64,000 nucleotides of DNA. It comes from Elusimicrobiota bacterium. Lineage in GTDB: Bacteria > Elusimicrobiota > Elusimicrobia > Elusimicrobiales > UBA9959. Below the pieces are notes generated by a model. That model did not search any database and was not told where the DNA came from. It was given only the letters and a program-made list of their open reading frames with translations. Of the stretch, positions 6,432 through 56,895 are shown in pieces. Location: contig JACQYT010000080.1 in NCBI GenBank assembly GCA_016208085.1, positions 56,514 through 120,513 of the forward strand, in the 5' to 3' direction. The position numbers and the translations under genes were made by a program. Each line of letters starts with the position of its first letter. Positions within the stretch are counted from its first letter, which is position 1.

Positions 6432-6432
6432 T

Positions 6433-6457
6433 AAAAATTTTTGCGGCAAAAATTTTT
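6433..6457. repeat. Palindromic repeat AAAAATTTTTGCGGCAAAAATTTTT (copy 1 of 3)
   Basis: Perfect 10-bp arms around GCGGC, directly followed by AATG, the start of the next ORF. Near-identical copies lie at 32411..32435 and 56696..56720. Confidence 0.85.
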
Positions 6458-6458
6458 A

Positions 6459-8791: not shown

Positions 8792-8940
8792 ATGGGTAAA
8801 TTCAACGAAGACACGCTTTCTGAAAAGCCGGCGATTGAGCAGTTGAGGCGGATGAAGTACGAGTTTATACCCGGCGACAAGCTGGACCCGCAGGAAACAG
8901 AAGATTGCGAGCGGACTTTGCGCCGTGAGGTTCAAGCATG
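8792..8940 (+). pseudogene. hsdR 5' stub (49 codons), a duplicated N-terminus of the HsdR gene at 10207
   Basis: MGKFNEDTLSEKPAIEQLRRMKYEFIPGDKLDPQETEDCERTLRRE compares with HsdR MTTPKFNEDTLSEKPAIEQLKRMKYEFLTGDKLDPQEAEECERTSRRD. Nucleotide similarity runs over 8798..8928 versus 10219..10349. Confidence 0.8.
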
Positions 8941-13200: not shown

Positions 13201-13242
13201 AGGGAGTTGATTGAGCTGGCCCAGCAATGGGTAAAGCGTTAA
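10207..13242 (+). CDS. hsdR: Type I restriction enzyme R subunit HsdR (nuclease + SF2 translocase)
   Basis: PD-(D/E)xK region PDIVIFVNGIPLAVIECK, helicase motif I WQGSGKSLTM, and DEAH box LTDEAHRTQYG. 1011 aa. Confidence 0.95.
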   Translation: MTTPKFNEDTLSEKPAIEQLKRMKYEFLTGDKLDPQEAEECERTSRRDVILADRLRAKLKELNPNAGEIAIEKAIRQATNIQGTSLMDENKLLHKALVSNISIEQEGPAGRRSVTIKFIDFDEPKNNDFLAVNQFRVKGPKVADRPDIVIFVNGIPLAVIECKSPVARETGVGDAIAQLLRYQKEIPALFRTNQIVLGTNLFGAKYGVIGADYGAFHEWKNKPEEKLPDLTDHPGVREMRDLGLLEDGELPRAPAQQDVTIAALFNKRNFLDIIRNFTVFQADQGKVSKKICRYQQFAAVQRLSARVLAEKEKKGIIWHWQGSGKSLTMVFAALKLRREERRLKNPYFLVVTDRKDLDRQITNTFNDCGFPNPIRAATGPELYRMLSEGVGRTIMTTVQKFRTPPDKPLSPADNIIVLTDEAHRTQYGSFAFNLRKALPNAAFFAFTGTPLDKKDRSTYKEFSPAGESYMHRYGIMESEADKATVPIKYMGRLPSLRLVGGSIDALLACLFPDKSKSELAGIKKQYAGMEVLHGAPQRIERVAMDIVEHYHQAIRPNGLKAMIVAKDRDAAELYKNCLDKLVPPEASAVIMTINERGDCEERKKRFSLTDKEEENLKERFKNPGDPLSFLIVCDKLLTGFDAPLLQAMYLDQRLIEHGLLQAVARTNRCYPGKNYGLVVDYVGIGSELAASLKKFNSEDVAGMFSAEDVEKELKQLPLLHKAAMVFFAGVSFDAQPRTIIQKCLEVLRPPAVRGGFDEAYRALAKSMDFLMPDLRIEPFLKDFKFLGAVREGAKNLYRDERLKSEDLSAKVKALIQAHIAAEKIEELLKPLTITAPDFAGQLAAKGSDKAKAVHLEYALRDTLRSASAENPAFYETLQKRLEDAIAANKKERRDDADLLLSLMRIKEIEAHKDETAKKLGLAGGREFAFFGLIDRSEDLPGLKKEERAVLAKEIIGLIEERAVAEWAEREDIQKEMRREIKRLLRRKGCAEEKLPALTRELIELAQQWVKR

Positions 13243-14743: not shown

Positions 14744-15163
14744 TGGGCGCGGGCGATAATTTTCGGGGCTGTACGGCGAAGCCGGGGGTGGAGCGAAGCG
14801 ACACAATTCAGGCTTCGAACAGGCGGCCAGCAGGCCGCGCAGAAGGAGGTGATGAGTATGAAACACCTCTTTTCTGCTGGAGCAGAGCGAGTCCGGATCC
14901 GGCCCACCAATGGGCCGGCGAGTGGGCGAGCCTGCGGCCCCTCCTGCGGCAAGGGGTGGACTATACCGCAGTCCTGCGCCACTATGGACACAATTCAGGC
15001 AATCAGGCGGTGGGCGGCCGCGCCGCGTGGCCGCGCCCACGACGGCTTCCCGCGGTTATGGGGGCTTTCAGGCTGCGGGGAAACGGACCGAAGCGGTATT
15101 TATAAAGTTTCCTCGGGATGTTCGGCAAAGCAGGTTCGAACTTTATCCTGAAAGGCCCGTAAT

Positions 15164-19516: not shown

Positions 19517-19711
19517 TTTGTCCTCCAGACATTGTACGCTTAATGTTATAAAGCACAAAATATCCATATGGACAATAAATACTATTGACATATATAGACA
19601 TTTTAAAAATAGAATATCCTTAGAACAAACCGAACAGAGACTTGCATAAAATCTATGATTTTACCATCTGTCTCTAATTTGCGAAATAACAAGCTTGCAG
19701 GAGGGGAATTT

Positions 19712-22700
19712 ATGAAACTTGGAAAAATTATTTCATATGTTTTGCTAATGTTTGTTTTAGCAGCAGTTTGTTCAGACAGGGCAGGGGCAGTTGACTGGAC
19801 ATTCAAAGTTACGGACACACTCCAGAATTACGGCTCTATTAGCACCTCAACAATACCAAACCCTGTCTATAACGACGGCTCAAAAATAATACGGGCGATT
19901 TCACCGGGCACAACCACAAGCTCCAATAACTGGTCTGCGTTCACCAACACCCTCTCAAATGTGACTTTCTACGCGCAATTGGAAGGAACAGCCCTTTCCA
20001 TTCTTGCCTCAGGCCCGACTGAAAGCGCGCTTCGCGCTCTTTGGGCAGGCTATTGGGATGATGAGCCTTACCTTGTAACGGATCCTGTTTCCGGTAACTC
20101 TCTATACCAAAGCTGGGCGGCCACCTACAGCGGGGGAAATTTTACAAGGCCATATGATAAATCGCGGACATTGTTATACCGTTTGGCAAAAGATACTTTA
20201 AGTCAGTTGAAGGGTTTGGGGGCAGTCGGCCAAAACTCGGCTCTAGCCGGCAATTACACTTACGATAGCGTCCAGCCAAAAAAGGTCTTTGTTATACATT
20301 ACAACGTAATGGCGAGCGAATATGGTTATCATGAATCGCTTTCGTCTCGACATTGGCCGTGGGGAAATGCAACCTCTCAATGCAAATACCATCCTTCTCT
20401 GTATGTCTGCGAATATTCCGACGGCGACGTAACCAAAATATTTAATTTTTCCTATCAGAATCCCGCCGCATTCAATTTGGCTGGTTATATCTCTAACGAC
20501 AATTCAGAATGGACAAAATTATACGCAGACTCAACACTATTAATTGAGCAGGTTAACTCTGGCGGTAAGTTAATCGGTATAAGCAGCGCCGCGGCCTTCC
20601 CATCGCAAATTAAGTGGCAGGGGCATAAGACTTGGTCAACCAATTGGGGAAATTTTTGGTACGCCGTCATGGCGGACTCTGTCAGCTACACAGGAACCTC
20701 GCAGGGGAACAGTGAGCCTGTCACCCCGGAATCACTGGATATTTTTGAACTTTTTAATTTTTCCGCCGGGCCGGTCAGCAGCGCGCCGATCGCCGCCATT
20801 CCCGGCAAAGGCTGGCAGATGCCCACCTACGATCTGGGCGCCACTAATTTCTACCCTTCCTCGTCCACGGCCTTTGCCGGCGGGCTTGGCCTTAAGTGGC
20901 AGGCATCCGCGTCAAAAGCGCTGACAGGGGATGTAAACGGCGACGGTTTCCTGGAGGTGGTTACAACCAATGGCAGCTTCCTGAAGGTGTTAGATAAGAA
21001 CGGCGCTGCGCTTGCGGCCGCAGCGACCCCTGCAACGTTGTCCGTTCTTGCGGACGTGACCGGTGACAATATCCCGGAGATATTCCTGTCTTACCGGGAC
21101 GGATTTAACAATCTGAAAATTGACATCTATCAGGGCAACGGGGCGTTTATCAAAACAATCAACCGGGGCGCAAGCGGATATGACAGCAGTTGGGAGGTAA
21201 GAGCGGTAATCGGAGACAAGATACTCACCGGCGAATATACGGGTTACAGCCTAATCCCCAGGGGCGCCGGCGCCTACAGCTATTCATCAGGCAACCAGCT
21301 TTGGTATTACGAAATAGGGCCCTGCTTTGCCGGAGGCGCGGCAAAAGGTTTCGGCATCGGCGACATCAACAGCGACGGGAAGCTGGAGGCGGGGCTTGGC
21401 GCTTACACCTGCCATAACGGAAAGTCGGCGAATGGGACGACTGACGGAGACATCTACAGCATAGTGATAAATGAAGACGGGCAGAATGTCTGGACAAAGA
21501 AAATCGCCGCTGATTGGGTAGCCGGCTGCGCTACGAACGGCTGGATTGAGCATACCTTTGCCGATATAAACGGCGACGGAAATTTAGAAGTCATCGCATT
21601 TGAGCAGCATGACCCGACATATTACCCGGGAACGAATCATATCCATTTAGTAAGCAATACCGGAGCAAACCTGGCGACTTTTGTCGGACCCGACAACGGC
21701 GAGAATTGGCTCTGGGCGATCGCCGATATGAACAATGACGGAAAAAAAGACATTGTTGTCTCCGCTAATAATGAGCAGCGAATTTATATTCTTGACAACC
21801 AGTTGGTCGTTCTGTCGTCAAGCGCTGCCGGCACGGGACAGGTGCTGGCGGTGAACGATATAAACGGCGACGGGAACAACGAAATAATCAGCTACCAGAC
21901 AAGCACATCTAAAATCAGGGTGCTTGGAAGCGATTTCACGGAACTGTATTCTTACGGTGTCAATAATGTGACTCCGTTCGGCAAGATAGTCTCGGATTTG
22001 GACAATGATGGCCAAAACGAGCTTATCGTTTTTACAACCGTAAATCAGATGTATGTTTTGGGGGCAATTGCGTCCGTTGCCACAATCTCCGGCAAGGTGA
22101 CAAAAGCCGACGGAACGACAGCCCTCCCCGGCGCAAAAGTTGAGGTTTTACAAAGTTCGGTTGTAAAGGCTTCGGCAACAGTGGACACAAGCGGCAATTA
22201 CTCTTTGACGATTGCCACCGGGACTTACGACATCAGGGCCTCGTCAAATGGGTATATCACCTCCACCCAAACCGGCAAAACCGTGGCATCAGGTCAAAAC
22301 CCTCCGGTTAATTTTACGCTGAACAGCGCTGTTATTATTGAAAAGATGGTCTTCAGCAAGAATGTCTCCGGCGACGACTATGATATTTACATAATGAATC
22401 CTGACGGCAACGGGCTTCAACAATTGACATCAGGAACTAACAGTGACCGGCGGCCGAGAATATCGCCTGACGGAGAGCTAATTGCTTTTGTAAGAGACGC
22501 GGGCGCAATATATGTAATGAACCCTGATGGCAGCGATGTCCATTCTATAGGTAATACATATTCATTATCATATGATCTGGCATGGTCAACCGACAGCAAA
22601 AAAATATATTACACAACAGGGGAAGGCAGCACCCAAATCCGCTCAATCGCAGTCTCGGGCGGAGCAGACACGCTTGTCTTAAGCAAGACTTCATACCGGT

Positions 22701-25700
22701 TTTTGTCGGTGGATGTGTCTTCCGACGGCAACCGGTTGGTATATATCCTGGACCCTTCAAACTGGACCCCGTACGCAGAACTTCACACGTTCAATCTTTC
22801 CACCCTGCAAGATGCCACTCTGCTGGGCAACGATGGTATTCGGGATTTTTACGCGCGATTTTCCCATGATGGCCAGAAAATAATATGGACAAAAGATACA
22901 AACTCCGAACCTTACGATTTCGGAATGCATATCTGGAAAATGAATACGGACGGTTCAGGCCAAACCGATCTGCACTCCGGGGCTAATTTTGAGGCTGACT
23001 ATCCTGTGGCTTCGCCTGATGACAGCCAAATCGTTTTTGCGCGCAGGGATTCGGCGTCGGGACCATGGAATCTCTGGAAGATGGGCTTTGACGGGACGAA
23101 TCAGGCTCAAATAACAACTATCGGAGGATGTATTGATACGGACTGGGGCCTGGCCGCCGCGCTATCTTCACCAACCGGCTTCATCTCAGGCAAGGTTACA
23201 AAGGCGGACGGGACAACGGCCATCCTGGGCGCAAAAATTGAAGCTTTGCAAAGCTCGGTTGTCAAAGCCTCGTCAACAGCGGACGCAAGCGGCAATTACT
23301 CTTTGACATTGGCCGCCGGAACTTATAACGTCCGTGCTTCTTCAACAGGTTATGTTGCCGCCGTCCAGACAGGTAAAACGGCAACAGCCGGCCAAACCGC
23401 CACGGTCAATTTCAACCTGGACACGGAGATCGTCGGCCAGCCTGACCTGGTTGTGTCAACTATTACCGTGGACTGTTCCACTCCGACAATCAACCAAACC
23501 GTTAATGTGATTATAAAGGTCAAAAACCAGGGCACGGCCGGCGCCAACGGGACTTTCTGGGTGGATTTCTACAAAAATCTCTCCCAGTCGCCGGCTGTGT
23601 CCCAACTGGGCAACGCTTACTGGTCTCAGAGCCCTCTGGAGGCCGGCGCGACAGCCCAATTGACTACGAGCTTCCATTATGACGGGGGCCAGTACAATCT
23701 TTACGCCCAGATTGACTCGGAAAACAACATAGCGGAAAGCAATGAAAGCAATAATATTTATGGACCGGTTTTAGTCAAAGAACAGATGGCAGGCGGGTGG
23801 ATCAGCGGCAAGGTTATTTCCAGGGCCGACGGCAAGGCCGTCCAGGGGGCGGCCATTGCCGCAAAACAGGGCGGGACAGCAATTAACAGTGCGGCGACAA
23901 ATATCGCCGGCAATTATGTTCTCGCTATTGCCTCAGGCGCTTATACGCTGGAAGCGACGGCTCCCGGTTATCTTTCCTCGTCAACGGCTGTTTCTATCCA
24001 GCTGGAGGAGACGAAATACAAAGACTTCGCCCTCTCGCCTATAACGGGTCAGGGCGTGATTACGGGATTTGTCACAAAAGCCGACGGGGTGACTCCCATT
24101 CCGAATGCCGCCATAAAATTGTCAATCGGAGCAATAGTCGTTGACACGAGGCTCGCAAACGCCATCGGCGCATACAGATTCATAACCTCCACCGGCACAT
24201 ACAATCTGGAGGCTAACGCCGCCGGTTATACAACAAAAGTTAACTCAAATATAACTATTTTGGACAACCAGGCGACAGCGGTTAATTTCGCCCTTGCTCT
24301 GGCCAATACGCCGCCGGAGCCTGTTTCTGAGCTTGCCGCTTTGCCTTTGGACAACCTGAAGGTCTTTTTGTCCTGGACCCCGTCCGTGTCCGGCGACGTT
24401 TTCTACTACCGCATTTATTACGCGGCCGGCGCGCTGGATTACCAGACGTTGTATGCCTCGGTAAAGGATACAATCAGCCATCTGGAGCGCTCCTGGACAA
24501 GCCCGGCTTTGAACCGCTCCCAAAATTACTATTTTTCTGTAAGGCCGGTGAATGTTTTTGAAGTGGAAAACCTTGATACCAACAATGAAGTGGAAAACCT
24601 TGATACCAACAATATCGTCAGCGCCGCTATCTCGGAAACCGTCTCCGGCGTCAAAGCGGCGATAAAAGTTCCACAAACAGGCAAAAAGGTCTCCGGCAAC
24701 AGGCTTACCATCGTTGCCGAAGCCGTCCAGGAGCCCTTAAATGTAAGCAAGATTAAATTCATGTACAAAGCGTCCCATCTTGAGGACTGGGAAAGCGTGC
24801 CCGCGGCCGACGCCAGGCATCCCAATCCCGCCGTTGTCTGGCCTTATTTTATCCACTGGGATCTTGCGGATGTTTCTGGCAATTCTTTGCCGGACGGCAA
24901 CTATGATTTAAAAGCCGTCGCATACGATAAAAATAATAACCCGGATCCGTCGCCGATGACCGTGACCATATCAATCAATCATGTGGATAAGGATATAGAG
25001 GAAAAACTGGTTGACGGAAGCCAGCGCAAGACGGAAAAGATACACAACGAGAAAGACAACACAATTAAGGTGGGTGGGGCGGAAGCGGACGCCCTTACCG
25101 AAGTGAAAGTGGCTGCCGGCGCTTTGAACCAGTCGTCGGATTATATCAATGTGACGATTAATCCCTCTCTGGCCTCAAGACCTATCGGAAATTTGGCGCA
25201 AGTGCTGGAATCGCGCGATGTCTTTTTGGACAGCGGCCAGAAAAATCTGTCCAAAGAATCGGAAATAACCATTCCCTATAACGACGCGAATAATGACGGT
25301 GTCGTTGACGGCACAAATATCAAGGCGGATGATTTGCAGGTTTGGTATTTTAATGAAGCGACAAAGTTATGGAAAAAGGAAGATCACTTCACAATAGACA
25401 AGACCAGAAAGGTCGCGACTGTGCTTGCAAGTCATTTCTCCACTTTTGCCCTGGTTTCTTCCCTGGGTGCGGATCTTTCCAATATTAAAGTATATCCCAG
25501 TCCCATCAAGGTTCATGACGGTCATGACAGGGCGACTTTCGCGGGGCTTACCGGCAAGGATGTGAAACTAAGGATATTCAACGTGGCCGGAGAGATCGTC
25601 TTTGAGAAAGAGCATATCTCGACCCCCACCTACGACTGGCTGCTGGTAAACAACAGCGGGAGAGCTGCGGCCGGCGGGGTTTATATATATGCGCTGACCG

Positions 25701-25747
25701 ACAATACCGGCGGGAAAGCCACCGGGAAATTCGGAGTAATAAGATAA
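19712..25747 (+). CDS. Giant (~2010 aa) secreted multidomain surface protein with a T9SS-type C-terminal sorting domain
   Basis: Signal peptide MKLGKIISYVLLMFVLAAVCSDRAGA after a GGAGGGG RBS. There are 7 FG-GAP/VCBS-like blades (GDVNGDGFLEVV, ADINGDGNLEVI, ADMNNDGKKDIV, NDINGDGNNEII, SDLDNDGQNELI ...). Four carboxypeptidase-regulatory-like domains (ISGKVTKADGTT...), TolB-like PD40 repeats, CARDB (PDLVVSTITVD...VKNQG), FN3 and Ig-like modules follow. The C-terminal tail VYPSPIKV...GVYIYALTDNTGGKATGKFGVIR resembles Por_Secre_tail. Confidence 0.85.
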   Translation: MKLGKIISYVLLMFVLAAVCSDRAGAVDWTFKVTDTLQNYGSISTSTIPNPVYNDGSKIIRAISPGTTTSSNNWSAFTNTLSNVTFYAQLEGTALSILASGPTESALRALWAGYWDDEPYLVTDPVSGNSLYQSWAATYSGGNFTRPYDKSRTLLYRLAKDTLSQLKGLGAVGQNSALAGNYTYDSVQPKKVFVIHYNVMASEYGYHESLSSRHWPWGNATSQCKYHPSLYVCEYSDGDVTKIFNFSYQNPAAFNLAGYISNDNSEWTKLYADSTLLIEQVNSGGKLIGISSAAAFPSQIKWQGHKTWSTNWGNFWYAVMADSVSYTGTSQGNSEPVTPESLDIFELFNFSAGPVSSAPIAAIPGKGWQMPTYDLGATNFYPSSSTAFAGGLGLKWQASASKALTGDVNGDGFLEVVTTNGSFLKVLDKNGAALAAAATPATLSVLADVTGDNIPEIFLSYRDGFNNLKIDIYQGNGAFIKTINRGASGYDSSWEVRAVIGDKILTGEYTGYSLIPRGAGAYSYSSGNQLWYYEIGPCFAGGAAKGFGIGDINSDGKLEAGLGAYTCHNGKSANGTTDGDIYSIVINEDGQNVWTKKIAADWVAGCATNGWIEHTFADINGDGNLEVIAFEQHDPTYYPGTNHIHLVSNTGANLATFVGPDNGENWLWAIADMNNDGKKDIVVSANNEQRIYILDNQLVVLSSSAAGTGQVLAVNDINGDGNNEIISYQTSTSKIRVLGSDFTELYSYGVNNVTPFGKIVSDLDNDGQNELIVFTTVNQMYVLGAIASVATISGKVTKADGTTALPGAKVEVLQSSVVKASATVDTSGNYSLTIATGTYDIRASSNGYITSTQTGKTVASGQNPPVNFTLNSAVIIEKMVFSKNVSGDDYDIYIMNPDGNGLQQLTSGTNSDRRPRISPDGELIAFVRDAGAIYVMNPDGSDVHSIGNTYSLSYDLAWSTDSKKIYYTTGEGSTQIRSIAVSGGADTLVLSKTSYRFLSVDVSSDGNRLVYILDPSNWTPYAELHTFNLSTLQDATLLGNDGIRDFYARFSHDGQKIIWTKDTNSEPYDFGMHIWKMNTDGSGQTDLHSGANFEADYPVASPDDSQIVFARRDSASGPWNLWKMGFDGTNQAQITTIGGCIDTDWGLAAALSSPTGFISGKVTKADGTTAILGAKIEALQSSVVKASSTADASGNYSLTLAAGTYNVRASSTGYVAAVQTGKTATAGQTATVNFNLDTEIVGQPDLVVSTITVDCSTPTINQTVNVIIKVKNQGTAGANGTFWVDFYKNLSQSPAVSQLGNAYWSQSPLEAGATAQLTTSFHYDGGQYNLYAQIDSENNIAESNESNNIYGPVLVKEQMAGGWISGKVISRADGKAVQGAAIAAKQGGTAINSAATNIAGNYVLAIASGAYTLEATAPGYLSSSTAVSIQLEETKYKDFALSPITGQGVITGFVTKADGVTPIPNAAIKLSIGAIVVDTRLANAIGAYRFITSTGTYNLEANAAGYTTKVNSNITILDNQATAVNFALALANTPPEPVSELAALPLDNLKVFLSWTPSVSGDVFYYRIYYAAGALDYQTLYASVKDTISHLERSWTSPALNRSQNYYFSVRPVNVFEVENLDTNNEVENLDTNNIVSAAISETVSGVKAAIKVPQTGKKVSGNRLTIVAEAVQEPLNVSKIKFMYKASHLEDWESVPAADARHPNPAVVWPYFIHWDLADVSGNSLPDGNYDLKAVAYDKNNNPDPSPMTVTISINHVDKDIEEKLVDGSQRKTEKIHNEKDNTIKVGGAEADALTEVKVAAGALNQSSDYINVTINPSLASRPIGNLAQVLESRDVFLDSGQKNLSKESEITIPYNDANNDGVVDGTNIKADDLQVWYFNEATKLWKKEDHFTIDKTRKVATVLASHFSTFALVSSLGADLSNIKVYPSPIKVHDGHDRATFAGLTGKDVKLRIFNVAGEIVFEKEHISTPTYDWLLVNNSGRAAAGGVYIYALTDNTGGKATGKFGVIR
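24560..24613 (+). repeat. Perfect 27-bp in-frame tandem duplication (EVENLDTNN x2) inside the giant gene
   Basis: GAAGTGGAAAACCTTGATACCAACAAT occurs twice back to back. Confidence 0.95.
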
Positions 25748-31977: not shown

Positions 31978-32409
31978 CTAGAACTTTCTGTTAAGGCAAA
32001 AATCAATAGCTTTGATGTATGAAATGGGTCCCAGGCCGCGTATCTGTCCGGCGCAGGCGGCTTTTGTCACCGAGAGCCGGCGGAACGGTTCCCTTTTCTT
32101 TATGTCGGAAAGATGCACCTCAACGGCCGGGAGCCCGGAGGCTTTTATGGCGTCCCTTATGGCGTAGCTGTAATGGGTGTACGCGGCGGGGTTTATTATA
32201 AGAGAGTCCGCCCAGTTTAAATTCCGCGCTATCAGGTCTATTATGCGGCCTTCGCAATTTGACTGGAATATCCTTGTTTTTACGCGTTTTGAGGCGGCAT
32301 ATTTTCTGATAAGGGCGTTCAGCTCTTTAAGCGTGAGCCTGCCGTATATTTCGGGCTCCCTTAAGCCCAGGAAATTAAGATTGGGGCCGTGGATTATAAG
32401 TATGTTCAT
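31978..32409 (-). CDS. aroQ: Type II 3-dehydroquinate dehydratase
   Basis: MNILIIHGPNLNFLGLREPEIYG is the type II DHQase N-terminus, and INPAAYTHYSYAIRDA is also present. The start is trimmed to Met7 because the track extension MRQKFL is a translated palindromic repeat. Confidence 0.9.
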   Translation of the reverse strand: MNILIIHGPNLNFLGLREPEIYGRLTLKELNALIRKYAASKRVKTRIFQSNCEGRIIDLIARNLNWADSLIINPAAYTHYSYAIRDAIKASGLPAVEVHLSDIKKREPFRRLSVTKAACAGQIRGLGPISYIKAIDFCLNRKF

Positions 32410-33557
32410 TAAAAATTTTTGTCGCAAAAATTTTTACCATACCCCGCCCGCAAGCCGCGGGGTAACCTTAATGCGGTCAGCGTTCCTTTAAGTATGCCGG
32501 GCGCGATATTGTTCACGGCCTTTATCCGCCCGGGCCGTTCTATCAGCAGGAACCGGTTTTTACCGGCTCCGGCTTTTTTATCATAGCAAATCAGCCTGTG
32601 AAAAGCGCGGAAGTCAAAGCATTTCGCGGCGAGCGGCGGGGCCTGCGTTTTCCATAATATGCCGGATACGGTTTTTTGATGCGCGGGTTTGAGGATTTTA
32701 AGTTTTATGGATAACAGGCACGCGTAGCGCATACCCCACAGCACGGCAGCCCCGTGCGCGAGGCGTCCGCCTGAGGCGGATTCAAAAGCGTGGCCGGCCG
32801 TATGGCCGAAATTTAAGCGTTCCCTTACGCCGGTCTTGTCCCGCTCGTCGCGCGCCGTCAGCGACAGCTTGAAATCCGCGCAGGCGCTCACCAGTTTCAC
32901 AAGGGCCGCCGTTTCGCCTTTCAGGGCGCGTCCGAGATTTTTAAGAACGCGGCGCCGCAAAGCCGCCGGCCCGATCAGCGCGTATTTCACCAGTTCGCCC
33001 GCGCCCGCGCTCAGCTCGTCCCGGCCCAGGGTTTGAAGAAAAGCGGCGTCGCAGACGGTCAGAGCGGGCTGGTAAAATGCGCCGGCCATATTCTTAATCC
33101 CGGCGAGGTCCACGGCCGTCTTCCCGCCGAGGCCCGCATCTATCTGGCCCAGAAAAGTGGTCGGCACGCTTATCCAGCTTATGCCGCGCATATAAAGAGA
33201 AGCCGCCAGGCCCGCCAGGTCAGTGACCGAGCCCCCGCCCGCCGCGATCAAAAGGGAGTTTCTTGAAAAGCCGCGCTTCAGCATGAACGAGAGGAGTTCT
33301 TCAAGCGCGCGGAAAGTTTTGGCGGGGCGTCCCGCCGGCAGGACGAAAATATGCGTTCCGGCCCGCCGCCGTCCCAGCATTTTTTTAAAGGTTCTTTTAA
33401 ATTTCTTCAGGCAGCCCCGGTCGGTCGCCAGGCAGATATGGCCGGCCCTGGCGAAAAGCTCCGGCGCCAGATCGGTAAGCGGCGGCAGATCCCGGCCGCA
33501 GACGGCCCGGACGGTCTTAGCGGTCTTTATATCGCGCTTTAAAAAAGTTTTTGTCAT
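32409..33557 (-). CDS. aroB: 3-dehydroquinate synthase
   Basis: AAGGGSVTDLAGLAAS glycine-rich NAD motif and the metal-binding H residues in NFGHTAGHAFE. There is a 1-nt stop/start overlap (TAATG) with aroQ. Confidence 0.85.
   Translation of the reverse strand: MTKTFLKRDIKTAKTVRAVCGRDLPPLTDLAPELFARAGHICLATDRGCLKKFKRTFKKMLGRRRAGTHIFVLPAGRPAKTFRALEELLSFMLKRGFSRNSLLIAAGGGSVTDLAGLAASLYMRGISWISVPTTFLGQIDAGLGGKTAVDLAGIKNMAGAFYQPALTVCDAAFLQTLGRDELSAGAGELVKYALIGPAALRRRVLKNLGRALKGETAALVKLVSACADFKLSLTARDERDKTGVRERLNFGHTAGHAFESASGGRLAHGAAVLWGMRYACLLSIKLKILKPAHQKTVSGILWKTQAPPLAAKCFDFRAFHRLICYDKKAGAGKNRFLLIERPGRIKAVNNIAPGILKGTLTALRLPRGLRAGYGKNFCDKNF
32411..32470. repeat. Two-hairpin repeat element (AAAAATTTTTGTCGCAAAAATTTTT + CCCCGC..GCGGGGTAACCTTA), copy 2 of 3, embedded in the aroB 3' end
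   Basis: Same architecture as 56696..56753 in the opposite orientation. It encodes the last ~20 aa and the stop of aroB, and it abuts the aroQ start codon. Confidence 0.8.
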
Positions 33558-38545: not shown

Positions 38546-39415
38546 ATGGACAGCGTCTATCGCATTCAGGGCCGGGACTTGCGGGAACAGGATATTGCCC
38601 AAATCAAATGTTTTCTAAACGACAATCCTGATTGGAGCCGCAATCGCCTTTCCATAGAATTAGCACAGGTTTGGAACTGGCGAACCCCAACTGGGCAGCT
38701 AAAGGATATGGCTGCTCGGAGCTTATTGCTCAAGCTGGAGCGATGTAATTTGATTGTCCTGCCGCCGCGTCGTCATAAAGCTTCCAAGCGCCTTCCCCAT
38801 GCGCCCGAGCTTGTCTTCCCAGAGTACGAAGCCTCTGTCACAGCCAAGCTCAGAGATCTGACTCCACTCTCCTTTGAGATAGTAGCCCCCAATCACACTA
38901 TATTCTCTCGACACCTTAAGCAACATCATTATCTCGGTTATCATGGGCCGGTCGGAGAAAGCATGGCCTACCTTGTTGGTGACCGATATGGACGCGACTT
39001 GGCATGCGTCCTTTTCGGCGCCGCGGCTTGGAAAGTAGCCGATCGTGACAATTACATTGGCTGGACTCCCGATGTACGGACATGTGGCCTCCATTGGCTG
39101 GCCAATAACACCCGCTTCTTGATTTTACCCTGGGTCAGAGTGGACCATCTGGCCAGTCACATCTTAGGCCGCATAGCCCGGCGCATAAGCGCAGACTGGG
39201 AACTCAAGTATGGCCACGGCATCTATTTGATTGAAACCTTTGTGGAGCGCGATCGTTTTAAAGGAACCTGCTACCGCGCAGCCAACTGGACATGCGTTGG
39301 ACAAACTCAGGGACGCAGCCGGCAGGATCGTAATCGGAAGCTGCATGTTCCCGTCAAAAACATTTACCTCTATCCCCTGCGTCGGGATTATAAGGAAGTC
39401 CTCTGCCATGGATAG
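38546..39415 (+). CDS. DUF4338 domain protein (DruA-like domain; commonly transposon-associated)
   Basis: Recognised from the overall pattern QIKCFLNDNPDWSRNRLSIELAQVWNWRTPTGQLKDMAARSLLLKLE...HHYLGY...FLILPWV...ETFVERDRFKGTCYRAANW. Its GC content is lower than that of the flanks. Confidence 0.6.
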   Translation: MDSVYRIQGRDLREQDIAQIKCFLNDNPDWSRNRLSIELAQVWNWRTPTGQLKDMAARSLLLKLERCNLIVLPPRRHKASKRLPHAPELVFPEYEASVTAKLRDLTPLSFEIVAPNHTIFSRHLKQHHYLGYHGPVGESMAYLVGDRYGRDLACVLFGAAAWKVADRDNYIGWTPDVRTCGLHWLANNTRFLILPWVRVDHLASHILGRIARRISADWELKYGHGIYLIETFVERDRFKGTCYRAANWTCVGQTQGRSRQDRNRKLHVPVKNIYLYPLRRDYKEVLCHG

Positions 39416-39734
39416 AAGCGAGGCGATTCAATTCTACCGTAGCGGCCAGGACATAACAGTGGAGAAGCTTTTGGAGTTGAGCGCGAAGGTTGACGCGCTT
39501 GAAAAAGAAAATGCCGCACTCAAAAAGAAATTTACCGTTCTGAACAATTACAGAAGCAAAAAATCTAAGAAGAATAAAAGTAAACCGTGGTGGCGATGGG
39601 GCAGGAAGAAAGGACATAAGGGGTCTTTCCGTCCCTTACCCGATCACATAGACCGCACGGTAAATGTAACAACCCGCAAGTGCCCGCAGTGTGAAGGCAA
39701 GCTGAGTGGTTGCCAAGAGGAATTCCCTGAATGA
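39408..39734 (+). mobile_element. IS66-family transposase, N-terminal fragment only (leucine zipper + zf-IS66), a decayed mobile element
   Basis: LEKENAALKKK coiled coil, basic stretch, then GSFRPLPDHIDRTVNVTTRKCPQCEGKL (the IS66 zinc-finger region). The ORF stops after 108 codons and no DDE core follows. Confidence 0.55.
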
Positions 39735-48987: not shown

Positions 48988-49037
48988 CTAGTGTAGCGTC
49001 CCGCAAATAACTAGACATTTGCGGGACGCTACACTAG
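48988..49037. repeat. REPIN-like perfect 21-bp inverted repeat with GTAG head (CTAGTGTAGCGTCCCGCAAAT / ATTTGCGGGACGCTACACTAG)
   Basis: Arms at 48988..49008 and 49017..49037. The 9-bp direct repeat TAGGCGGGC lies at 48968..48976 and 49035..49043. Confidence 0.8.
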
Positions 49038-51320: not shown

Positions 51321-52757
51321 TCAGTTCTGCCAGACCTTGTCGGTCCAGACCATAAACTCGTCCCACTGCGAGGTCTGCGACAGCTCAAGGTCGGAATACT
51401 TCGTCTCGTAGATATCGGCCAGTTGCGGCGGGGGTTTCTTTATTTTCATGGTCATGTTTATCGCGATGCCGCCGACCCTGGAATAGTCGTAGCCGTTCTC
51501 GGAGTCCGCGTTGAGGCCGACGCTCCTGAAGACCAGCCCGGACTTTATGAAGCCCATAAGCTCTTCAGCCGCCTGTCTGGCCGCCCGGGACGCGGCGTTG
51601 GCGCCCGTTATTGCGGCGAAATCATACAGGTCTACGTAGGGCGCCAGCATTTTTTTCTTGTCGTTCTTCGGGTCCAGGCTTGAGAACCTGACGGCTTTTT
51701 CAATGGCGATCTTGACCGCCCCGGTCTCATTGTTTTCCATGACCGCGCCGGCGAAAGCGTTAAGATACCCCGGCAGCTCATTCAAAGCCTGGGGCCTCAC
51801 CGTGGACATCGTAGCGGTTATTGAGCCCAGCGGGATGTGTATGGGGCCCACCGGCGCGCCTTCGGAGAAGAACTGCTTCTGCCAGTTGATGAAAAAATCG
51901 CTTATCCGTTCGTTCGTCGCGGCGGGCTCGGTGTTCATGAAGCCGAGCAGCTTCTGGTAATCAAAGCCGTAGGCCAGCATGCTCTCTTCGGAGGCGACTA
52001 TAAGCCCGGCGTTGTCTCTGACCTCGTAGGCCACTTCCGCCATCTGCATCAGGCAGGCATTCATCACGAACACATCCATGTAGCCGGAGGCCCGCAGGAT
52101 CTCGCCGAGCTGCTTCGTGCGCACGTAATTCTTGGTTTCGTCGTCAAAAAGTATGCCCTTGTTCCCGCCTGTGCCGGTGCCGGCGGAATGGTTCTGAAGG
52201 TTCGGGTCTATCCAGCCGAGCCCGTGGTTCCACAGGATGAGCATGTACTTTTTGGCCGGGAAATTGGTCTTGGCCCATTTGGCGAACTCTATAACCCGTT
52301 TATAATCGCCCATGTCGGCGTTCGGGTCCTGGCTGTAGACGGTCTCGCCGTTTGAAAGCAGGCTTTTTTTGCCTACAAGCAGCCGCTTGGCGCCTTTGCC
52401 CGCGGTACCGTAATCCACGACGACATTGACCTTATCGGTGGTGCCGACCTTCTTCATCTCGGCCAGGTCTTTCTCGGCCCATTTGCCCGCGAGGCCGAAA
52501 AGGGCGCTGTCGGCCAGATCGTTCTTGGCGTTCATAAAGACCATGACGGTCCATTCTTTAGCGGCGGCGGGTTTGGCCGGTTCGTCGGGCTTTATCCAGT
52601 CCAGGATGCCCTTCTGTCCACCTAAGGCGGACGAATTTTGAATATCTTCGGCATTAAGGGAGTTCAGGTTGAAGGGTTCTCCGGCTTTAAGGGATAAGGC
52701 GTTAAAAAATAAAAAGGACGCGGTAAACAGGGCGAGTCCGGCGGCTGTTTTCTTCAT
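51321..52757 (-). CDS. Secreted clostripain-family (peptidase C11) cysteine protease
   Basis: Signal peptide MKKTAAGLALFTASFLFFNALSL after a GGAGGGA RBS. WTVMVFMNAKNDL, the catalytic His in ILWNHGLGW, and the catalytic Cys in VFVMNACLM. The start is trimmed by 105 codons. Confidence 0.85.
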   Translation of the reverse strand: MKKTAAGLALFTASFLFFNALSLKAGEPFNLNSLNAEDIQNSSALGGQKGILDWIKPDEPAKPAAAKEWTVMVFMNAKNDLADSALFGLAGKWAEKDLAEMKKVGTTDKVNVVVDYGTAGKGAKRLLVGKKSLLSNGETVYSQDPNADMGDYKRVIEFAKWAKTNFPAKKYMLILWNHGLGWIDPNLQNHSAGTGTGGNKGILFDDETKNYVRTKQLGEILRASGYMDVFVMNACLMQMAEVAYEVRDNAGLIVASEESMLAYGFDYQKLLGFMNTEPAATNERISDFFINWQKQFFSEGAPVGPIHIPLGSITATMSTVRPQALNELPGYLNAFAGAVMENNETGAVKIAIEKAVRFSSLDPKNDKKKMLAPYVDLYDFAAITGANAASRAARQAAEELMGFIKSGLVFRSVGLNADSENGYDYSRVGGIAINMTMKIKKPPPQLADIYETKYSDLELSQTSQWDEFMVWTDKVWQN

Positions 52758-53094
52758 TAATCCCTCCGTAACAATATAAATCAATATATACATGATAGTA
52801 AGTATTTGTCCGTTCCGTAAGGGGCCTGCGGCCCAGAGGGGGGAAGAATTTAGGCCTATACGGGGATAGGCCCTTTTGTCACTCCCGGTTGCTCGGCGCC
52901 ATAAGAAGATATAATGCCAAAAAAACGCGAGGCGCAAAAAATTGCCGGTTCCGGGTTCAGGAAAAGTGGTTCCGTCTACCGCCTTGCCTCTCATGGCGCG
53001 CGCCGGTAAAAAAATAAAGTATAATGATAGCTGAATTTTATGGCTAAAGAGCGCATCCTTATAGCCGGTCAATACGAACGATCTTTATAAATTA

Positions 53095-53277
53095 GTGGAA
53101 GGCGTGGATAACACAGGCCTGTCAAAGGCGCTTGATATTCTTTTGAACCGGTTAAGGAAGGCTCTCCCCAACGAGGTATCAAAAAATATTATAAATGTTA
53201 AAAATTTCGGTTATGTGTATATTTCCGCCGGTTCCAGCGAGCCTCCCGCAGAACACCAGCCTGAAAAACTCAACTGA
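53095..53277 (+). pseudogene. Possible remnant of an OmpR-type response-regulator C-terminal (winged-helix) domain
   Basis: LDILLNRLRKALPNEVSKNIINVKNFGYVY resembles the trans_reg_C pattern VDVHI.RLRKKL....I.TVRG.GY. Only 60 codons remain, with no receiver domain. Confidence 0.3.
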
Positions 53278-53313
53278 ATTTCTGTAAATATTCGGTGAAC
53301 CCATCATTTGCTC

Positions 53314-53458
53314 CTGTAGTGGCAAAGCTTGCTTTGCCTCTTTTCCCTGTAGCGGTCGCATTTATGCGACCTGTTCACTCCAATTGTGTCGCTTTGCTCC
53401 ACCCTTTCCTGGCGGATAAATCCGCCCGCTACAGGCAGAGCAAGCTCTGCGACTACAT
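53314..53458. repeat. Nested REP/REPIN-like cluster: four ~25-bp GTAG-headed hairpin units in the order A, B, B-inverted, A-inverted
   Basis: A is 53314..53338, CTGTAGTGGCAAAGCTTGCTTTGCC. B is 53347..53371, CTGTAGCGGTCGCATTTATGCGACC. B' is 53411..53434 and A' is 53435..53458. By hand alignment A/A' match 20 of 24 and B/B' 20 of 24. The outer 8-bp inverted repeat is GTGAACCC / GGGTTCAC at 53295..53302 and 53488..53495. Confidence 0.8.
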
Positions 53459-53589
53459 ACCGGGCGGAGAACCCACGAAGGATACACGGGTTCACTGAAA
53501 GTTTACGAATTTTTCGGGTTGGTTTTCCCCAATTGCCTCTTGGAGCCGTGCCGGCCGGGCAACTCATTTGCCCGTTAAAACAGTAAACA

Positions 53590-56500
53590 ATGAACGGAGA
53601 CGGCAGGCCGGAGATGCTGGGGGGTACTACTTCCGGCAACCAGATACAGGCCTTTGACCGTTTTGCCAGGTGGGTCTGGAGATACATACTGGGCAGTCAT
53701 GCTATCTCCACACCGGCGGTTGAACGGCTGACGGCTGACGGAACTCCTGCGGTGTTTGCAGGCAGTTTTGACAGGTATTTACGTTCCATTGACGGGAAAA
53801 CCGGGGTTTTGAACTGGGCATTCCCCGCTTATAACTGGATCTGGTCCTCTCCCGCTGTGGCGGATCTGGATGGCGATGGAGGCAAAGAAGTGGTGTTTGC
53901 GTCAGATACAGGCGCGCCGAACTTATACGTATTAAACGCATCTCAGGGGGCCCTGAAATGGAGCGCGTCCATCGGAGGTTCAGCGCGGGCTTCCGCAGGC
54001 ATTGCGGATTTGAATTCCGACGGCATCAAAGAGGTATTGATCGGCTCGGCCGGCGGCGCTTTCTATTGCCTGAACGGCAAGACAGGAGCGGTTCAATGGA
54101 CCTTCCAGACAGGCGGCGAAATCGTTTCCTCGGCTGCTATCGGAGACCTGGACGGAGACGGGGATTTGGAGGTGGTATTCGGTTCTACCGACGGTTTCCT
54201 CTACGTTCTGGATGGAAAAGGCGTTTTGCTTTGGAAGACGAACCTTGGGAGCCCGGTTTACTCTTCACCGGCTCTGGCCCGGCGGGGCAGCGATACGAGA
54301 CTGGATATCTATATAACCACCCTGGCCGGGAGACTGGCTATTTTGAGGGGAACTGACGGGTTCCTGCTGGGAGGATTTCAGGTGGATGCCCAGGTGGTGT
54401 CCTCGCCTGTCGTAGCAGACATAGACGGAGACGGAAAACTGGAGATATTCTTCCATGACCGCAAAGGGGACACCAACTCTGTAATGTCGGGCGACAGGTT
54501 CTGGGCGGTCCGGGACGTAAATTCCTCGGTTTCTCCGTATGCGCGGGAATGGCCCATGTTCAGGCGGGATTCAGCACATACCGGCGTCTATCCTTTGCCT
54601 GATTCGCCTCCGGCAAAAGTCACCGGTCTTTCAGTGAACGCTCCGGCCGAGGGCGGCAGGCTTGAACTTCTCTGGACCGCGAATGCCGAGCCCGACATCG
54701 CTTCGTACAGAATCTACCGGAACGGGGAATTTAAAATTCAATTAAGCTCCTTATCATACACGGACACGGGGCTTGTCGATGGAACGACCTGCACCTATCA
54801 GGTCGGCGCCGTTGACAGGTCGGGCAATGAAGGGCCGAAGTCCGATTCGGTATCCGGCATGCCAAAGGACCGATTAGCGCCTGTTTCAAGGATCGTGTCG
54901 CCTTCAGACGGGACAAAACTTTCCGCTGCAAGCGTGACTATTTCCGGCACAGCCCGGGATAACGGCGTTGCAGGGGTAAAAAAGGTTGAAATCCGCATAT
55001 TTGATTTACAGGAGGGCGCCACGTGGTTTTTGGCATCTGAAACATCTGCCATATTTAATTTTGAAATGACTGGTTTAAAGGATAACCGCACGTATCAGAT
55101 TGATTCAAGGGCTGAGGATTGGGAAGGCAACCGGGAACAGACGCCTGTTGAGGTTCAGTTCAATGTGATTCTGCCCCCGCTCGCAATAACCGGGCTTACA
55201 GCAATCGTACATGCAACCGGCAATTCAGCAACACTTAGCTGGAACCCTGTGTCTGAAGCGGATATTGCAGGATATAGAATTTATTCCGGAGACGGGAATT
55301 TAATTGCAACAATTTCGACAACAACTTTTGAATTGACAAACCTGACCTATGGCGCCGGCTATACTTATTATGTAAGCGCCGTGGATGCAACCGGACTGGA
55401 AAGCCCGCGAGCCGGTGTTTCATTTACAACGCCTGTGAACGGTTCAGCCAGGGCCGTTATAGGGGTACCTAAAGACGGCAAAAAAATCTGGGGCAATGCA
55501 GTGACCATTAAGGCTGACGCTACGGATTCCGCTTCCAAAGTTCAGTTCCAGTGCCGGAAGGAAGGAGAAGCTGTTTACACAGACATCTCGTCCGCCGACT
55601 CAAACGCGCCGTATGCCGTTTATTGGAATGTGAGCGATGCCCGGATCAGCACCGGCACTTACTATCTGAGAGCGGTGGCTTTTGACTCAGACGGCCTGCC
55701 GGATTTGTCTCCTCCCGAGATTCGCGTACTCGTGGATGACGCAAATGCGGACATTGTGGAAGACGGAAACCCGGAAGTGGATCCAAATGCGCAGCACAGG
55801 AAGATGGAAAAACTCATCTCAGACAATAACGCGCAGAAAATCGAGACTCTGGACGGCACGAATATTGTCATTCCGCCGGGAGCAGTGCCGGAAGGCGAAC
55901 AAATCCAGATCCAGGTTGTCGGCAATGTTGAAGCCTCTCTTCAAGCCGGCGGCAAGATTTTAAAACCTGCGGGCGTATTCCGCAGGTTTACGTTCATCAG
56001 CGGCGCCACGCAATTCAAAGGGAAACTGACTCTAACCCTTCCTGTGCCCGACGGGAATGGAGACGGCATTGTGGACGGGACGGACATCAAGATAAGCTTG
56101 CTGAAGGTTTATTTCTTTTCAGAATCCAAAGGAGAATGGGTTGCCGTGGAATCTTTGAATTCAAATACTCCGGCGCCTTTGTCGGCTGTCGTAACTTCGG
56201 CATCTCCTGCGCAGAATCAGAAATCTGTTTCCGTTCAGGTGGATCACTTTACGCTTTTCGGTCTGTTCCAGGAACAGCTGGTTTCGGAGGAGTTGCGGTT
56301 AGGCGAGCTGTATGTCTACCCGAACCCGGTCCGGGGCAATGACCGGCCGACTTTGCATATAGAAGCCGGAAAGGCGGACCGGCTGGAAATCCGGATTCAT
56401 GACCTTGCAGGGGATCTGATTCACTCCATAGACATAAATTCTCTTCCTTCCATTGTAGATGGTAAGTATGTCTACAGATATCAATGGGACACAGCCGGCG

Positions 56501-56592
56501 TTCCCAGCGGAATATACATCTTCCTGGTGAAGGCTGTCAAAGCCGGCCAGGGAAGCGTGAAAGGAAAAGGCAAGATAGCCTTGATTAAATAA
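53590..56592 (+). CDS. PQQ/FG-GAP beta-propeller + FN3/Ig surface protein with a T9SS-type C-terminal domain; it lacks a signal peptide and is probably 5'-truncated
   Basis: ADLDGDGGKEVVF, ADLNSDGIKEVLI, GDLDGDGDLEVVF and ADIDGDGKLEIFF, with BamB-like G..KW strands. FN3 modules are present. The segment AVIGVPKDGKKIWGNAVTIKADA... is paralogous to 24650..24990 of the giant gene. The C-terminal tail is VYPNPVRGNDRPTLHI...GIYIFLVKAVKAG...GKIALIK. Confidence 0.75.
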   Translation: MNGDGRPEMLGGTTSGNQIQAFDRFARWVWRYILGSHAISTPAVERLTADGTPAVFAGSFDRYLRSIDGKTGVLNWAFPAYNWIWSSPAVADLDGDGGKEVVFASDTGAPNLYVLNASQGALKWSASIGGSARASAGIADLNSDGIKEVLIGSAGGAFYCLNGKTGAVQWTFQTGGEIVSSAAIGDLDGDGDLEVVFGSTDGFLYVLDGKGVLLWKTNLGSPVYSSPALARRGSDTRLDIYITTLAGRLAILRGTDGFLLGGFQVDAQVVSSPVVADIDGDGKLEIFFHDRKGDTNSVMSGDRFWAVRDVNSSVSPYAREWPMFRRDSAHTGVYPLPDSPPAKVTGLSVNAPAEGGRLELLWTANAEPDIASYRIYRNGEFKIQLSSLSYTDTGLVDGTTCTYQVGAVDRSGNEGPKSDSVSGMPKDRLAPVSRIVSPSDGTKLSAASVTISGTARDNGVAGVKKVEIRIFDLQEGATWFLASETSAIFNFEMTGLKDNRTYQIDSRAEDWEGNREQTPVEVQFNVILPPLAITGLTAIVHATGNSATLSWNPVSEADIAGYRIYSGDGNLIATISTTTFELTNLTYGAGYTYYVSAVDATGLESPRAGVSFTTPVNGSARAVIGVPKDGKKIWGNAVTIKADATDSASKVQFQCRKEGEAVYTDISSADSNAPYAVYWNVSDARISTGTYYLRAVAFDSDGLPDLSPPEIRVLVDDANADIVEDGNPEVDPNAQHRKMEKLISDNNAQKIETLDGTNIVIPPGAVPEGEQIQIQVVGNVEASLQAGGKILKPAGVFRRFTFISGATQFKGKLTLTLPVPDGNGDGIVDGTDIKISLLKVYFFSESKGEWVAVESLNSNTPAPLSAVVTSASPAQNQKSVSVQVDHFTLFGLFQEQLVSEELRLGELYVYPNPVRGNDRPTLHIEAGKADRLEIRIHDLAGDLIHSIDINSLPSIVDGKYVYRYQWDTAGVPSGIYIFLVKAVKAGQGSVKGKGKIALIK

Positions 56593-56675: not shown

Positions 56676-56895
56676 CTGTAGCGGCAGAGTTTACTAAAAA
56701 TTTTTGCGGCAAAAATTTTTATAATGCCCCGACCTTTGGTCGGGGTAACCTTAGGGCAAGAGGGAGTTTGAGGGAGAAAGAAATTTCTCCCTCATCCCCG
56801 GCAAGGTGTTGAAGAAAACCCCGTGCCGGGTACGATAAAATGTTGCTTCAACATTTTATTCTGTCCAAAAAGGCAAGGCAAGCTTTGCCGCTACA
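56676..56895. repeat. 220-bp array of six different short hairpins bracketed by inverted GTAG-headed units (CTGTAGCGG ... CCGCTACA)
   Basis: Contains the two-hairpin element 56696..56753 and GAGGGAGAAA-GAAA-TTTCTCCCTC (56771..56794). It also holds a CCCGGCA..TGCCGGG hairpin, AAAATGTTG-CTT-CAACATTTT (56837..56857), and unit A in inverted orientation (56872..56895, 22 of 25 matches to 53314..53338). Confidence 0.8.

Follow-up and report, generated by a model that had tools for sequence, protein, structure and literature searches.

Doublets of repetitive extragenic palindromes inside a probable IS66-family miniature element of an Elusimicrobiota genome

Insertion sequences (ISs) of the IS66 family have the canonical gene arrangement tnpA-tnpB-tnpC. 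Repetitive extragenic palindromes (REPs), REP doublets forming hairpins (REPINs), and bacterial interspersed mosaic elements (BIMEs) have reportedly been described by Nunvar in 2010 and by Bertels and Rainey in 2011. IS66 elements possess an inverted repeat of 20-30 bp that starts with GTAAGCG, together with 8-bp direct repeats (PMC11946415), and the inverted repeat of ISPsk01 is GTAAGCGTCCGGCGAACTCACCTT (PMC12888890). In Di Nocera et al. (2013), REP dimers are central in longer conserved palindromes in Anabaena variabilis (GTAG-15) and Halothiobacillus neapolitanus (CGTC-1), and empty palindromes are rare or absent. We analyzed a stretch of 64,000 nucleotides from an Elusimicrobiota bacterium (assembly GCA_016208085.1, contig JACQYT010000080.1, positions 56,514 to 120,513; the whole stretch is referred to as the window) and identified a 223-bp element at 53284-53506 (+). 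This element is probably a miniature inverted-repeat transposable element (MITE) of the IS66 family that carries two nested, GTAG-headed REP doublets as cargo, so that it unites small mobile DNA of two known kinds. An earlier reading, made from the sequence alone, had taken the locus to be a nested REPIN with an 8-bp inverted repeat as its closure; its hairpin units and their REP nature held up in our analysis, and the description of the whole as a plain, closed REPIN did not.

Terminal repeats and IS66-family relatives

The 223-bp element consists, in order, of a terminal inverted repeat (TIR), unit A, unit B, a centre, unit B', unit A', a subterminal segment, and a second TIR. The left TIR, 19 nt in length, is located at 53284-53302 (+) and reads GTAAATATTCGGTGAACCC (GTAARTAYTCRGTGAAC as a search pattern); the right TIR is located at 53488-53506 (-), reads GTAAACTTTCAGTGAACCC on the minus strand, and has 3 mismatches. 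The two ends are complementary at 16 of 19 positions. The 8-bp inverted repeat that the sequence-only reading took as the closure of a nested REPIN, GTGAACCC/GGGTTCAC, was found to be the inner part of this 19-nt IS66-family TIR, outside of which there is an 8-bp target duplication. The left copy of the duplication (GAATTTCT, 53276-53283) and the right copy (GAATTTTT, 53507-53514) are identical at 7 of 8 positions, and the probability of at least 7/8 is 3.8e-4. When aligned to each other as an inverted repeat, the halves of the element scored 82, compared to a maximum of 35 for shuffled sequences. There was no transposase gene in the 223 bp, and open reading frames (ORFs) crossing the element had no Pfam match. 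The NCBI annotation also places no gene there, as the protein numbering (MBI4802620-MBI4802650) is contiguous across the element. Both ends of full-length IS66-family elements, including those at loci L146, L163, and L185, have exactly the sequence of the left TIR, and the ISPsk01 repeat and the window TIR have 16 of 24 positions in common.

Relatives were collected by scanning species-representative genomes with the pattern of unit A, which yielded more than 112 loci in at least 31 assemblies of metagenome-assembled genomes (MAGs), and by scanning metagenome contigs with the TIR, which yielded more than 120 loci. Scans of viral contigs with the TIR and with unit A gave 0 matches. In the unit-A genome loci and the window, there were 35 TIR-like sites with up to 4 mismatches compared to 0 in shuffles. 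Inverted TIR pairs 123-223 bp apart were accompanied by 8-bp duplications in these loci; the duplications were perfect (8/8) in L062 (GGTTCAAA), L104 (CCAGCCGC), and L092 (TAATGATG), and 7/8 each in L096, L015, and the window element.

The loci from the TIR scan included both long and short elements. At least 10 had inverted TIRs 2.6-3.0 kb apart (L130, L138, L146, L152, L160, L163, L167, L175, L185, L197, L219). The ORFs of two of these were examined, and the 566-aa protein of L146 and the 573-aa protein of L163 matched Pfam DDE_Tnp_IS66 (5.6e-54 and 3.7e-50, respectively); with the NCBIfam equivalog for IS66-family transposases (transpos_IS66), the L146 protein reached 284 bits, well above the cut-off of 180. 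Each of the two also encodes a second protein with a DruA/DUF4338 domain. The remaining 2.6-3.0 kb elements contained tblastn homologues of the L146 transposase and accessory protein, and tnpC and the DruA/DUF4338-like gene were found in either order (L146:10046-12719, L130:2486-5532, and other TIR-scan loci). Perfect 8-bp duplications flanked the full-length L146 and L219 elements. The short elements with window-type TIRs numbered 32 (86-401 bp) and had diverse interiors; 15 of them had 8/8 duplications and another 6 had 7/8. Because the same ends bound both the 2.6-3.0 kb ISs, the two examined of which encode an IS66-family DDE transposase, and short elements with 8-bp duplications, we conclude that the shell of the window element is probably an IS66-family MITE.

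The element is like IS66-family ISs and MITEs in having TIRs of approximately 20 bp that start with GTAA, an 8-bp duplication, a small size without coding capacity, and full-length partners that encode a transposase of the NCBIfam IS66 equivalog. However, the parent ISs differ from IS66 in that they carry tnpC and a DruA/DUF4338-like gene rather than tnpA-tnpB-tnpC. The window MITE also differs from IS66-derived MITEs, since it keeps only the TIRs of the parent and its interior consists of REP hairpins, not of deleted IS DNA. There were no GTAG hairpins in the subterminal parts of the full-length ISs, which suggests that the REP hairpins are cargo and not a remnant of the parent. A derivation of the TIR from the 3' coding motif REYIxNNP of REP-associated tyrosine transposase (RAYT) genes, to which it has a partial nucleotide resemblance, was considered and rejected because the TIR is identical to the ends of IS66-family elements.

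The sequence-only reading corresponds to another explanation, in which a RAYT alone built and moved the locus as a pure REPIN or BIME cluster, with the symmetry of the outer repeat being incidental. The GTAG heads and perfect hairpins in inverted doublets are what such a cluster would have, free doublets without TIRs are present in many genomes and inside RAYT genes, and REP dimers lie inside longer palindromes in some species according to Di Nocera et al. (2013). However, the outer ends (GTAAATATTC...) are 19 nt in length and identical to the ends of IS66-family ISs, an 8-bp duplication flanks the element, and the same ends enclose many unrelated interiors. IS200/IS605-type HUH/Y1 elements are not known to make such target duplications. 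We consider the TIR-scan results to largely refute a pure RAYT-driven cluster, which is highly improbable. In contrast to the window element, for which both were identified, the GTAG-15 and CGTC-1 palindromes have no duplication or parent IS reported in the portion of the 2013 survey that was available.

Insertion of the MITE would have been accomplished by an IS66-type transposase acting in trans, at a site between two divergent genes. The flanks contain the arms of a 21-nt imperfect palindrome, the left at 53251-53271 and its partner at 53507-53527, complementary at 17 of 21 positions. Since removal of the MITE and one copy of the duplication restores this hairpin with a 4-nt loop, the landing spot may have been the loop of a small palindrome that was already present, and the target that we infer is this palindrome. 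The empty allele would then read ...AAAAACTCAACTGAATTTYTCGGGTTGGTTTTCC..., with a single GAATTTYT. With 3 mismatches in one TIR and a 7/8 duplication, the element most likely represents a passive insertion of moderate age.

Several observations weigh against the interpretation of the locus as an IS66-family MITE with REP cargo. The pattern for the TIR scan was taken from the window, and each match therefore has one exact end by construction; the independent evidence in that scan comes from the second end together with the element length and the transposase. Among approximately 30 other MITEs with window-type TIRs from metagenomes, GTAG hairpins were found in only L204, so the REP cargo characterizes a lineage rather than the family as a whole. 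The target duplication is imperfect at 7/8, there is only one copy of the MITE in the 64-kb window, and the window has a single IS66-type copy, a truncated one, and neither an intact IS66 transposase nor a RAYT. An empty site was not found by exact look-ups of the two flanking proteins using several start codons, and look-ups of neighboring genes gave only short Logan contigs that broke inside repeats. Lastly, a RAYT origin of the cargo is one that we infer from relatives of the element.

GTAG hairpins and their copies in other genomes

The order of the four perfect hairpins with GTAG heads, A-B-B'-A' at 53314-53457, is as the sequence-only reading had proposed. Unit A is located at 53314-53338 (+) and reads CTGTAGTGGCAAAGCTTGCTTTGCC, with a 24-nt core at 53315-53338 (TGTAGTGGCAAAGCTTGCTTTGCC); unit B is located at 53347-53371 (+; CTGTAGCGGTCGCATTTATGCGACC), unit B' at 53411-53434 (GGCGGATAAATCCGCCCGCTACAG), and unit A' at 53435-53457 (-; GCAGAGCAAGCTCTGCGACTACA, or TGTAGTCGCAGAGCTTGCTCTGC when read on the minus strand). 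All four have the same architecture, which is (C)TGTAG followed by 1-2 nt and a perfect stem of 7-8 bp with a 2-nt loop. Complementarity was slightly better than previously counted, at 22/25 for A and A' and 20/23 for B and B', and A' has a compensatory change in its stem relative to A (A-T to G-C). The heads of A and A', like those of B and B', point outward and form inverted doublets as in REPINs. Each unit is a palindrome of 20-40 bp with a 5' GTAG, and the same is true of an additional inverted copy of A at 56871-56895, which had also been noted in that reading (at 56872-56895) and was found to match at 23 of 25 positions.

These units are not explained by chance. The motif CTGTAGYGG was observed 4 times in the window compared to 0.4 expected. 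The enrichment of GTAG next to palindromes, which the sequence-only reading had proposed as a check, was assessed in the window as GTAG adjoining a perfect stem of 7 bp or more; there were 6 such sites compared to 0.65 expected. The predicted fold of the region was -48 kcal/mol, with z = -5.5. Taken together, the excess of the motif, the excess of GTAG-stem combinations, and the z-score of the fold rule out chance as the source of the units.

Unit A, counted as TGTAGTGGCAAAGCTTGCTTTGCC together with its compensatory G-C variant, occurred 119 times in the fetched genome loci, whereas the calculated number of chance matches in the whole 596-Gb collection was approximately 0.14. Most of the 119 occurrences were paired with an inverted partner that bears a different hairpin. 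Positions 11 and 20 of unit A covary (96 A-T, 20 G-C) in units that were chosen by their pairing, and in 3 of the 119 the bases at positions 11/20 or 12/19 did not form a Watson-Crick pair. The unit has a high copy number in JAHJSU01, an Elusimicrobia MAG and the source of 45 of the 112 unit-A loci. The assemblies that contain the 24-nt unit A (L002-L113) are labelled Elusimicrobiota, Omnitrophota, Ratteibacteria, Planctomycetota, Nitrospinae, Bacillota, Ignavibacteria, and others, with mis-binning being possible. This span of phyla is unusually broad for one REP sequence.

We also quantitated other hairpins in the unit-A loci. Hairpins other than A, with a stem of 7 bp and a loop of 2 nt, numbered 382, and 84 of these had GTAG exactly 1 nt upstream, representing 46 distinct units. 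These hairpins belong to the superfamily of GTAG-tagged REPs that Di Nocera et al. (2013) described. The REP reading of the units in the window was thus correct, in that they are GTAG-tagged hairpins of a widespread, multi-copy superfamily. The resemblance to GTAG-tagged REPs, REPINs, and BIMEs (GTAG-1-like in Di Nocera et al. 2013) includes the GTAG head, the 1-2 unpaired nt, the 7-8 bp stem, and the 2-nt loop. The outward-headed inverted doublets, the compensatory stem variants, the several hairpins sharing one head, and the link of these units to RAYT genes of related genomes are also as in REPINs. In contrast to REPINs, the doublets in the window are nested and enclosed by DDE-type TIRs with a duplication, are of low density, and have no RAYT in the window. 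A further difference is the presence of unit A in many phyla, as vertical inheritance is described as predominant for REPIN-RAYT systems.

The closest relative of the window element is L104:338-473 from JAHJSU01, another Elusimicrobiota genome. Starting at the first TIR, this sister element runs collinear with that of the window across A, A', and the right subterminal segment up to the second TIR, and it is without B-centre-B'. The nested doublet in the window is 88 nt in length (53347-53434, +), lies between A and A', starts with CTGTAG, and ends with CTACAG. Alignment with L104 showed that it is bounded exactly by its own GTAG heads, without a duplication, and that it is situated directly 3' of TTTTCC, where L104 has TTTTAC. 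By sequence comparison, the nested B doublet is shown to be an insertion relative to the L104 sister element. Since its boundaries are exactly the GTAG heads and there is no duplication, the doublet may have arrived by a REPIN-type, HUH-style (HUH/Y1) event. The outer A/A' doublet is shared with L104, and the B doublet is nested in its spacer. In agreement with the sequence-only reading, B-centre-B' behaves as an inserted REP doublet. Unit B adjoins A, in the same order of A followed by B, in L032 as well.

The centre of the nested doublet contains a motif at 53382-53404 (-) that reads GGGTGGAGCAAAGCGACACAATT on the minus strand. It recurs at 22 of 23 positions at 14786-14808 of the window and is also present in L079; its core, GGGTGGAGCRAAGCGACACAA, was found at 14786-14806 and at L079:5624-5644. 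At 14786-14850, within a 450-bp intergenic region beside two tRNA genes, the centre motif is followed by GAACAGG and a different hairpin, and this segment resembles a decayed half of a B doublet. The sequence GACACAATTCAGGC was found again at 14986-15002. Neither ARAGORN nor Rfam detected a tmRNA or other RNA at 14760-15100.

A 113-bp MITE with ends GTAACTACTCAGGT was observed in JAHJSU01, where it encloses a doublet of A and GGCAGAGTAAACTCTGCC (L011, L021, L025, L036, and others). In the scan of this MAG, 17 of 25 inverted TIR pairs had perfect 8-bp duplications, and most pairs represented the 113-bp element, which therefore looks recently active.

Because the window element has IS66-type TIRs with an 8-bp duplication and GTAG-headed hairpins inside, it carries two sets of mobility signals, REP and IS66-type, and dispersal as a unit would be by the DDE route. 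GTAG REP hairpins can thus be packaged in a MITE with the ends of a DDE transposon and a target duplication, which means that the copy number of a REP need not mirror RAYT activity. This has a bearing on models of REPIN populations and on automated annotation of repeats in uncultured phyla.

RAYT genes with an in-frame pair of REP units

The GTAG-headed hairpins are of the kind recognized by RAYT (HUH/Y1) transposases, and binding and cleavage by a RAYT are predicted for those in the window. No RAYT gene was detected in the window by tblastn with E. coli RayT and two closer RAYTs, or by a profile hidden Markov model (HMM) applied to all stop-to-stop ORFs, in agreement with the sequence-only reading. 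The association with RAYTs that it had suggested was found in related genomes, in which the same units are tied to RAYT genes; it does not extend to a gene in the window. The possibility that the element is a decayed RAYT gene was rejected, as tblastn with E. coli RayT gave E = 4.3 at 53244-53543, and the two closer RAYTs and the profile HMM gave nothing. The idea was also dropped because the sequence between A' and A is unlike a segment coding for HUH.

RAYT genes were present within two unit-A loci, namely L058:2231-2689 (-) from Ratteibacteria and L065:3355-3783 (+) from JAHJSU01. Against NCBIfam REP_Tyr_transpos, with a cut-off of 80, these scored 86 and 77 bits, respectively. In both genes, an A'-type unit is read in frame as VVAELAL and an inverted A is read in frame as AKQALPLQ, such that the pair brackets the HUH motif. 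A third gene, L118:9788-10315 (+), is AT-rich and retains both REP segments. The three genes are approximately 60% identical. Among residues conserved in all three, the codons were identical for 10 of 13 in the REP segments, and for 13 of 52 outside of these segments (Fisher p = 9e-4). When 30 homologues were aligned, KAKQALPLQ proved to be an insertion relative to several relatives; three or four tandem in-frame copies of it were present in P0011, and another RAYT subclade has ANQGWQLQ at this position. In the RAYT of JAHJSU01, the catalytic tyrosine is closely followed by a TAA stop codon.

On a limited search, we did not find a REP pair inside a RAYT gene described in the REP literature. 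The in-frame A' and A of these related loci are like intragenic REPs, such as the Rickettsia palindromic elements (RPEs) and those of Di Nocera et al. (2013). They differ in that they reside in the RAYT gene itself, where they flank the HUH motif as a pair and show conservation at synonymous sites. These data could be taken to mean that the RAYT ORF holds the master copies of the REP doublets, which spread between distant phyla within IS66-type MITEs; we regard this scenario as rather unlikely. If true, REPIN populations would have a horizontal, DDE-driven route and could be regenerated from the transposase gene itself.

Another scenario is that the GTAG hairpins are mere filler of a MITE lineage that is spread by the DDE route, with no role for a RAYT and with the B doublet acquired by recombination. 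The only perfect GTAG hairpins of the window are inside the MITE, no RAYT is in the window, and the A units of JAHJSU01 are mostly in MITE-like composites whose ends start with GTAAC. The 17 perfect 8-bp duplications among 25 TIR pairs in that MAG and the early stop codon of its RAYT also fit this scenario. However, doublets without TIRs and solo units are found in many genomes, and the copy at 56871-56895 is in the window itself. The GTAG heads are the exact boundaries of the B doublet, which has no duplication, and the units inside RAYT genes are conserved at the nucleotide level. In addition, 46 distinct hairpins have identical GTAG-N spacing, which points to recognition of head and hairpin together by a protein. 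We, therefore, consider the filler scenario to be quite unlikely and retain the interpretation of the doublets as REP cargo of an IS66-family MITE.

In the window, the element is a single insertion between divergent genes and is probably inert. The more unusual observations, the REP pair in RAYT genes and the REP shared across phyla, lie in the related loci and not in the window. These relatives raise two questions, one regarding the presence of a single 24-nt REP across phyla and the other regarding a RAYT clade that keeps its own REP pair in coding sequence.

Surroundings of the element in the window

The intergenic region that contains the element separates a Peptidase_C11 gene at 51321-53072 (-) from a divergent gene at 53590-56592 that encodes a 1000-aa FG-GAP/fn3 protein, and the element is 84 nt upstream of the start of the latter. 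We considered whether the element is a locus-specific structured regulatory RNA or DNA cruciform that is selected upstream of this surface-protein gene. The predicted fold is strong, as stated above, the region is divergent and intergenic, and unit A followed by a T-run scored as terminator-like. The strength of the fold carries little weight, since stability is a trivial consequence of an inverted repeat. In contrast, no Rfam family matched the element (only two tRNAs reached the gathering score in the whole window), no promoter-like site was found in the element on the strand of the gene, and the same types of element are present with target duplications beside unrelated genes in many genomes. 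A regulatory structure is, therefore, extremely improbable compared to a mobile element.

Of 54 perfect hairpins in the window, 4 were GTAG-tagged, and all 4 were inside the MITE. The expectation that the genome hosts several REP subfamilies was weakly supported; four GTAG hairpins were indeed present, but at this low density and confined to the MITE. The other REP-like items in the window were one imperfect solo A, one truncated head, and one GTAG-headed palindrome. The solo A at 56871-56895 (-) extends its match to 26/29, and Logan contigs L001 and L244 begin approximately 40 nt upstream of it, at 56831. The truncated A'-like head at 56676-56689 (+; CTGTAGCGGCAGAG) abuts an unrelated 65-bp repeat. 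Logan contigs (SRR12113400-SRR12113406) ended at 53350 and 53368, inside the MITE, as is expected at repeated DNA. A 50-bp palindrome at 48988-49037, with perfect 21-bp arms and GTAGCG on both sides, lies between divergent genes, and Logan contig L115 starts within it.

A decayed IS66-type remnant was identified at 38546-39734 (+). It consists of a DruA/DUF4338-like gene at 38546-39415 followed by an ORF of 108 aa at 39408-39734, which overlaps the gene by 8 nt. The former matched Pfam DruA (5.4e-36) and had 35% identity (E = 5e-60) with the accessory protein that the TIR-bounded L130 IS encodes. The likeness of the 108-aa ORF to the N-terminus of TnpC was weak (E = 0.04), and it may be a truncated tnpC. 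A search for TIRs around 38546-39734 gave only chance-level matches.

Other repeats were also observed in the window. The repeat of approximately 65 bp that the truncated head abuts is present at 6428-6463, 32404-32470 (-), and 56689-56753, and consists of a 27-nt AT-rich palindrome (TAAAAATTTTTGCGGCAAAAATTTTTA), a CCCCG...CGGGG hairpin, and TAACCTTA; the stem of the hairpin has compensatory differences between copies. A direct repeat of 135 bp with 87% identity is located at 8797-8931, between listed ORFs, and at 10218-10352, at the start of a 1011-aa ORF (10207-13242). Another direct repeat, of 241 bp with 75% identity, is located at 22085-22325 and 23183-23423, within a 2030-aa ORF (19655-25747).

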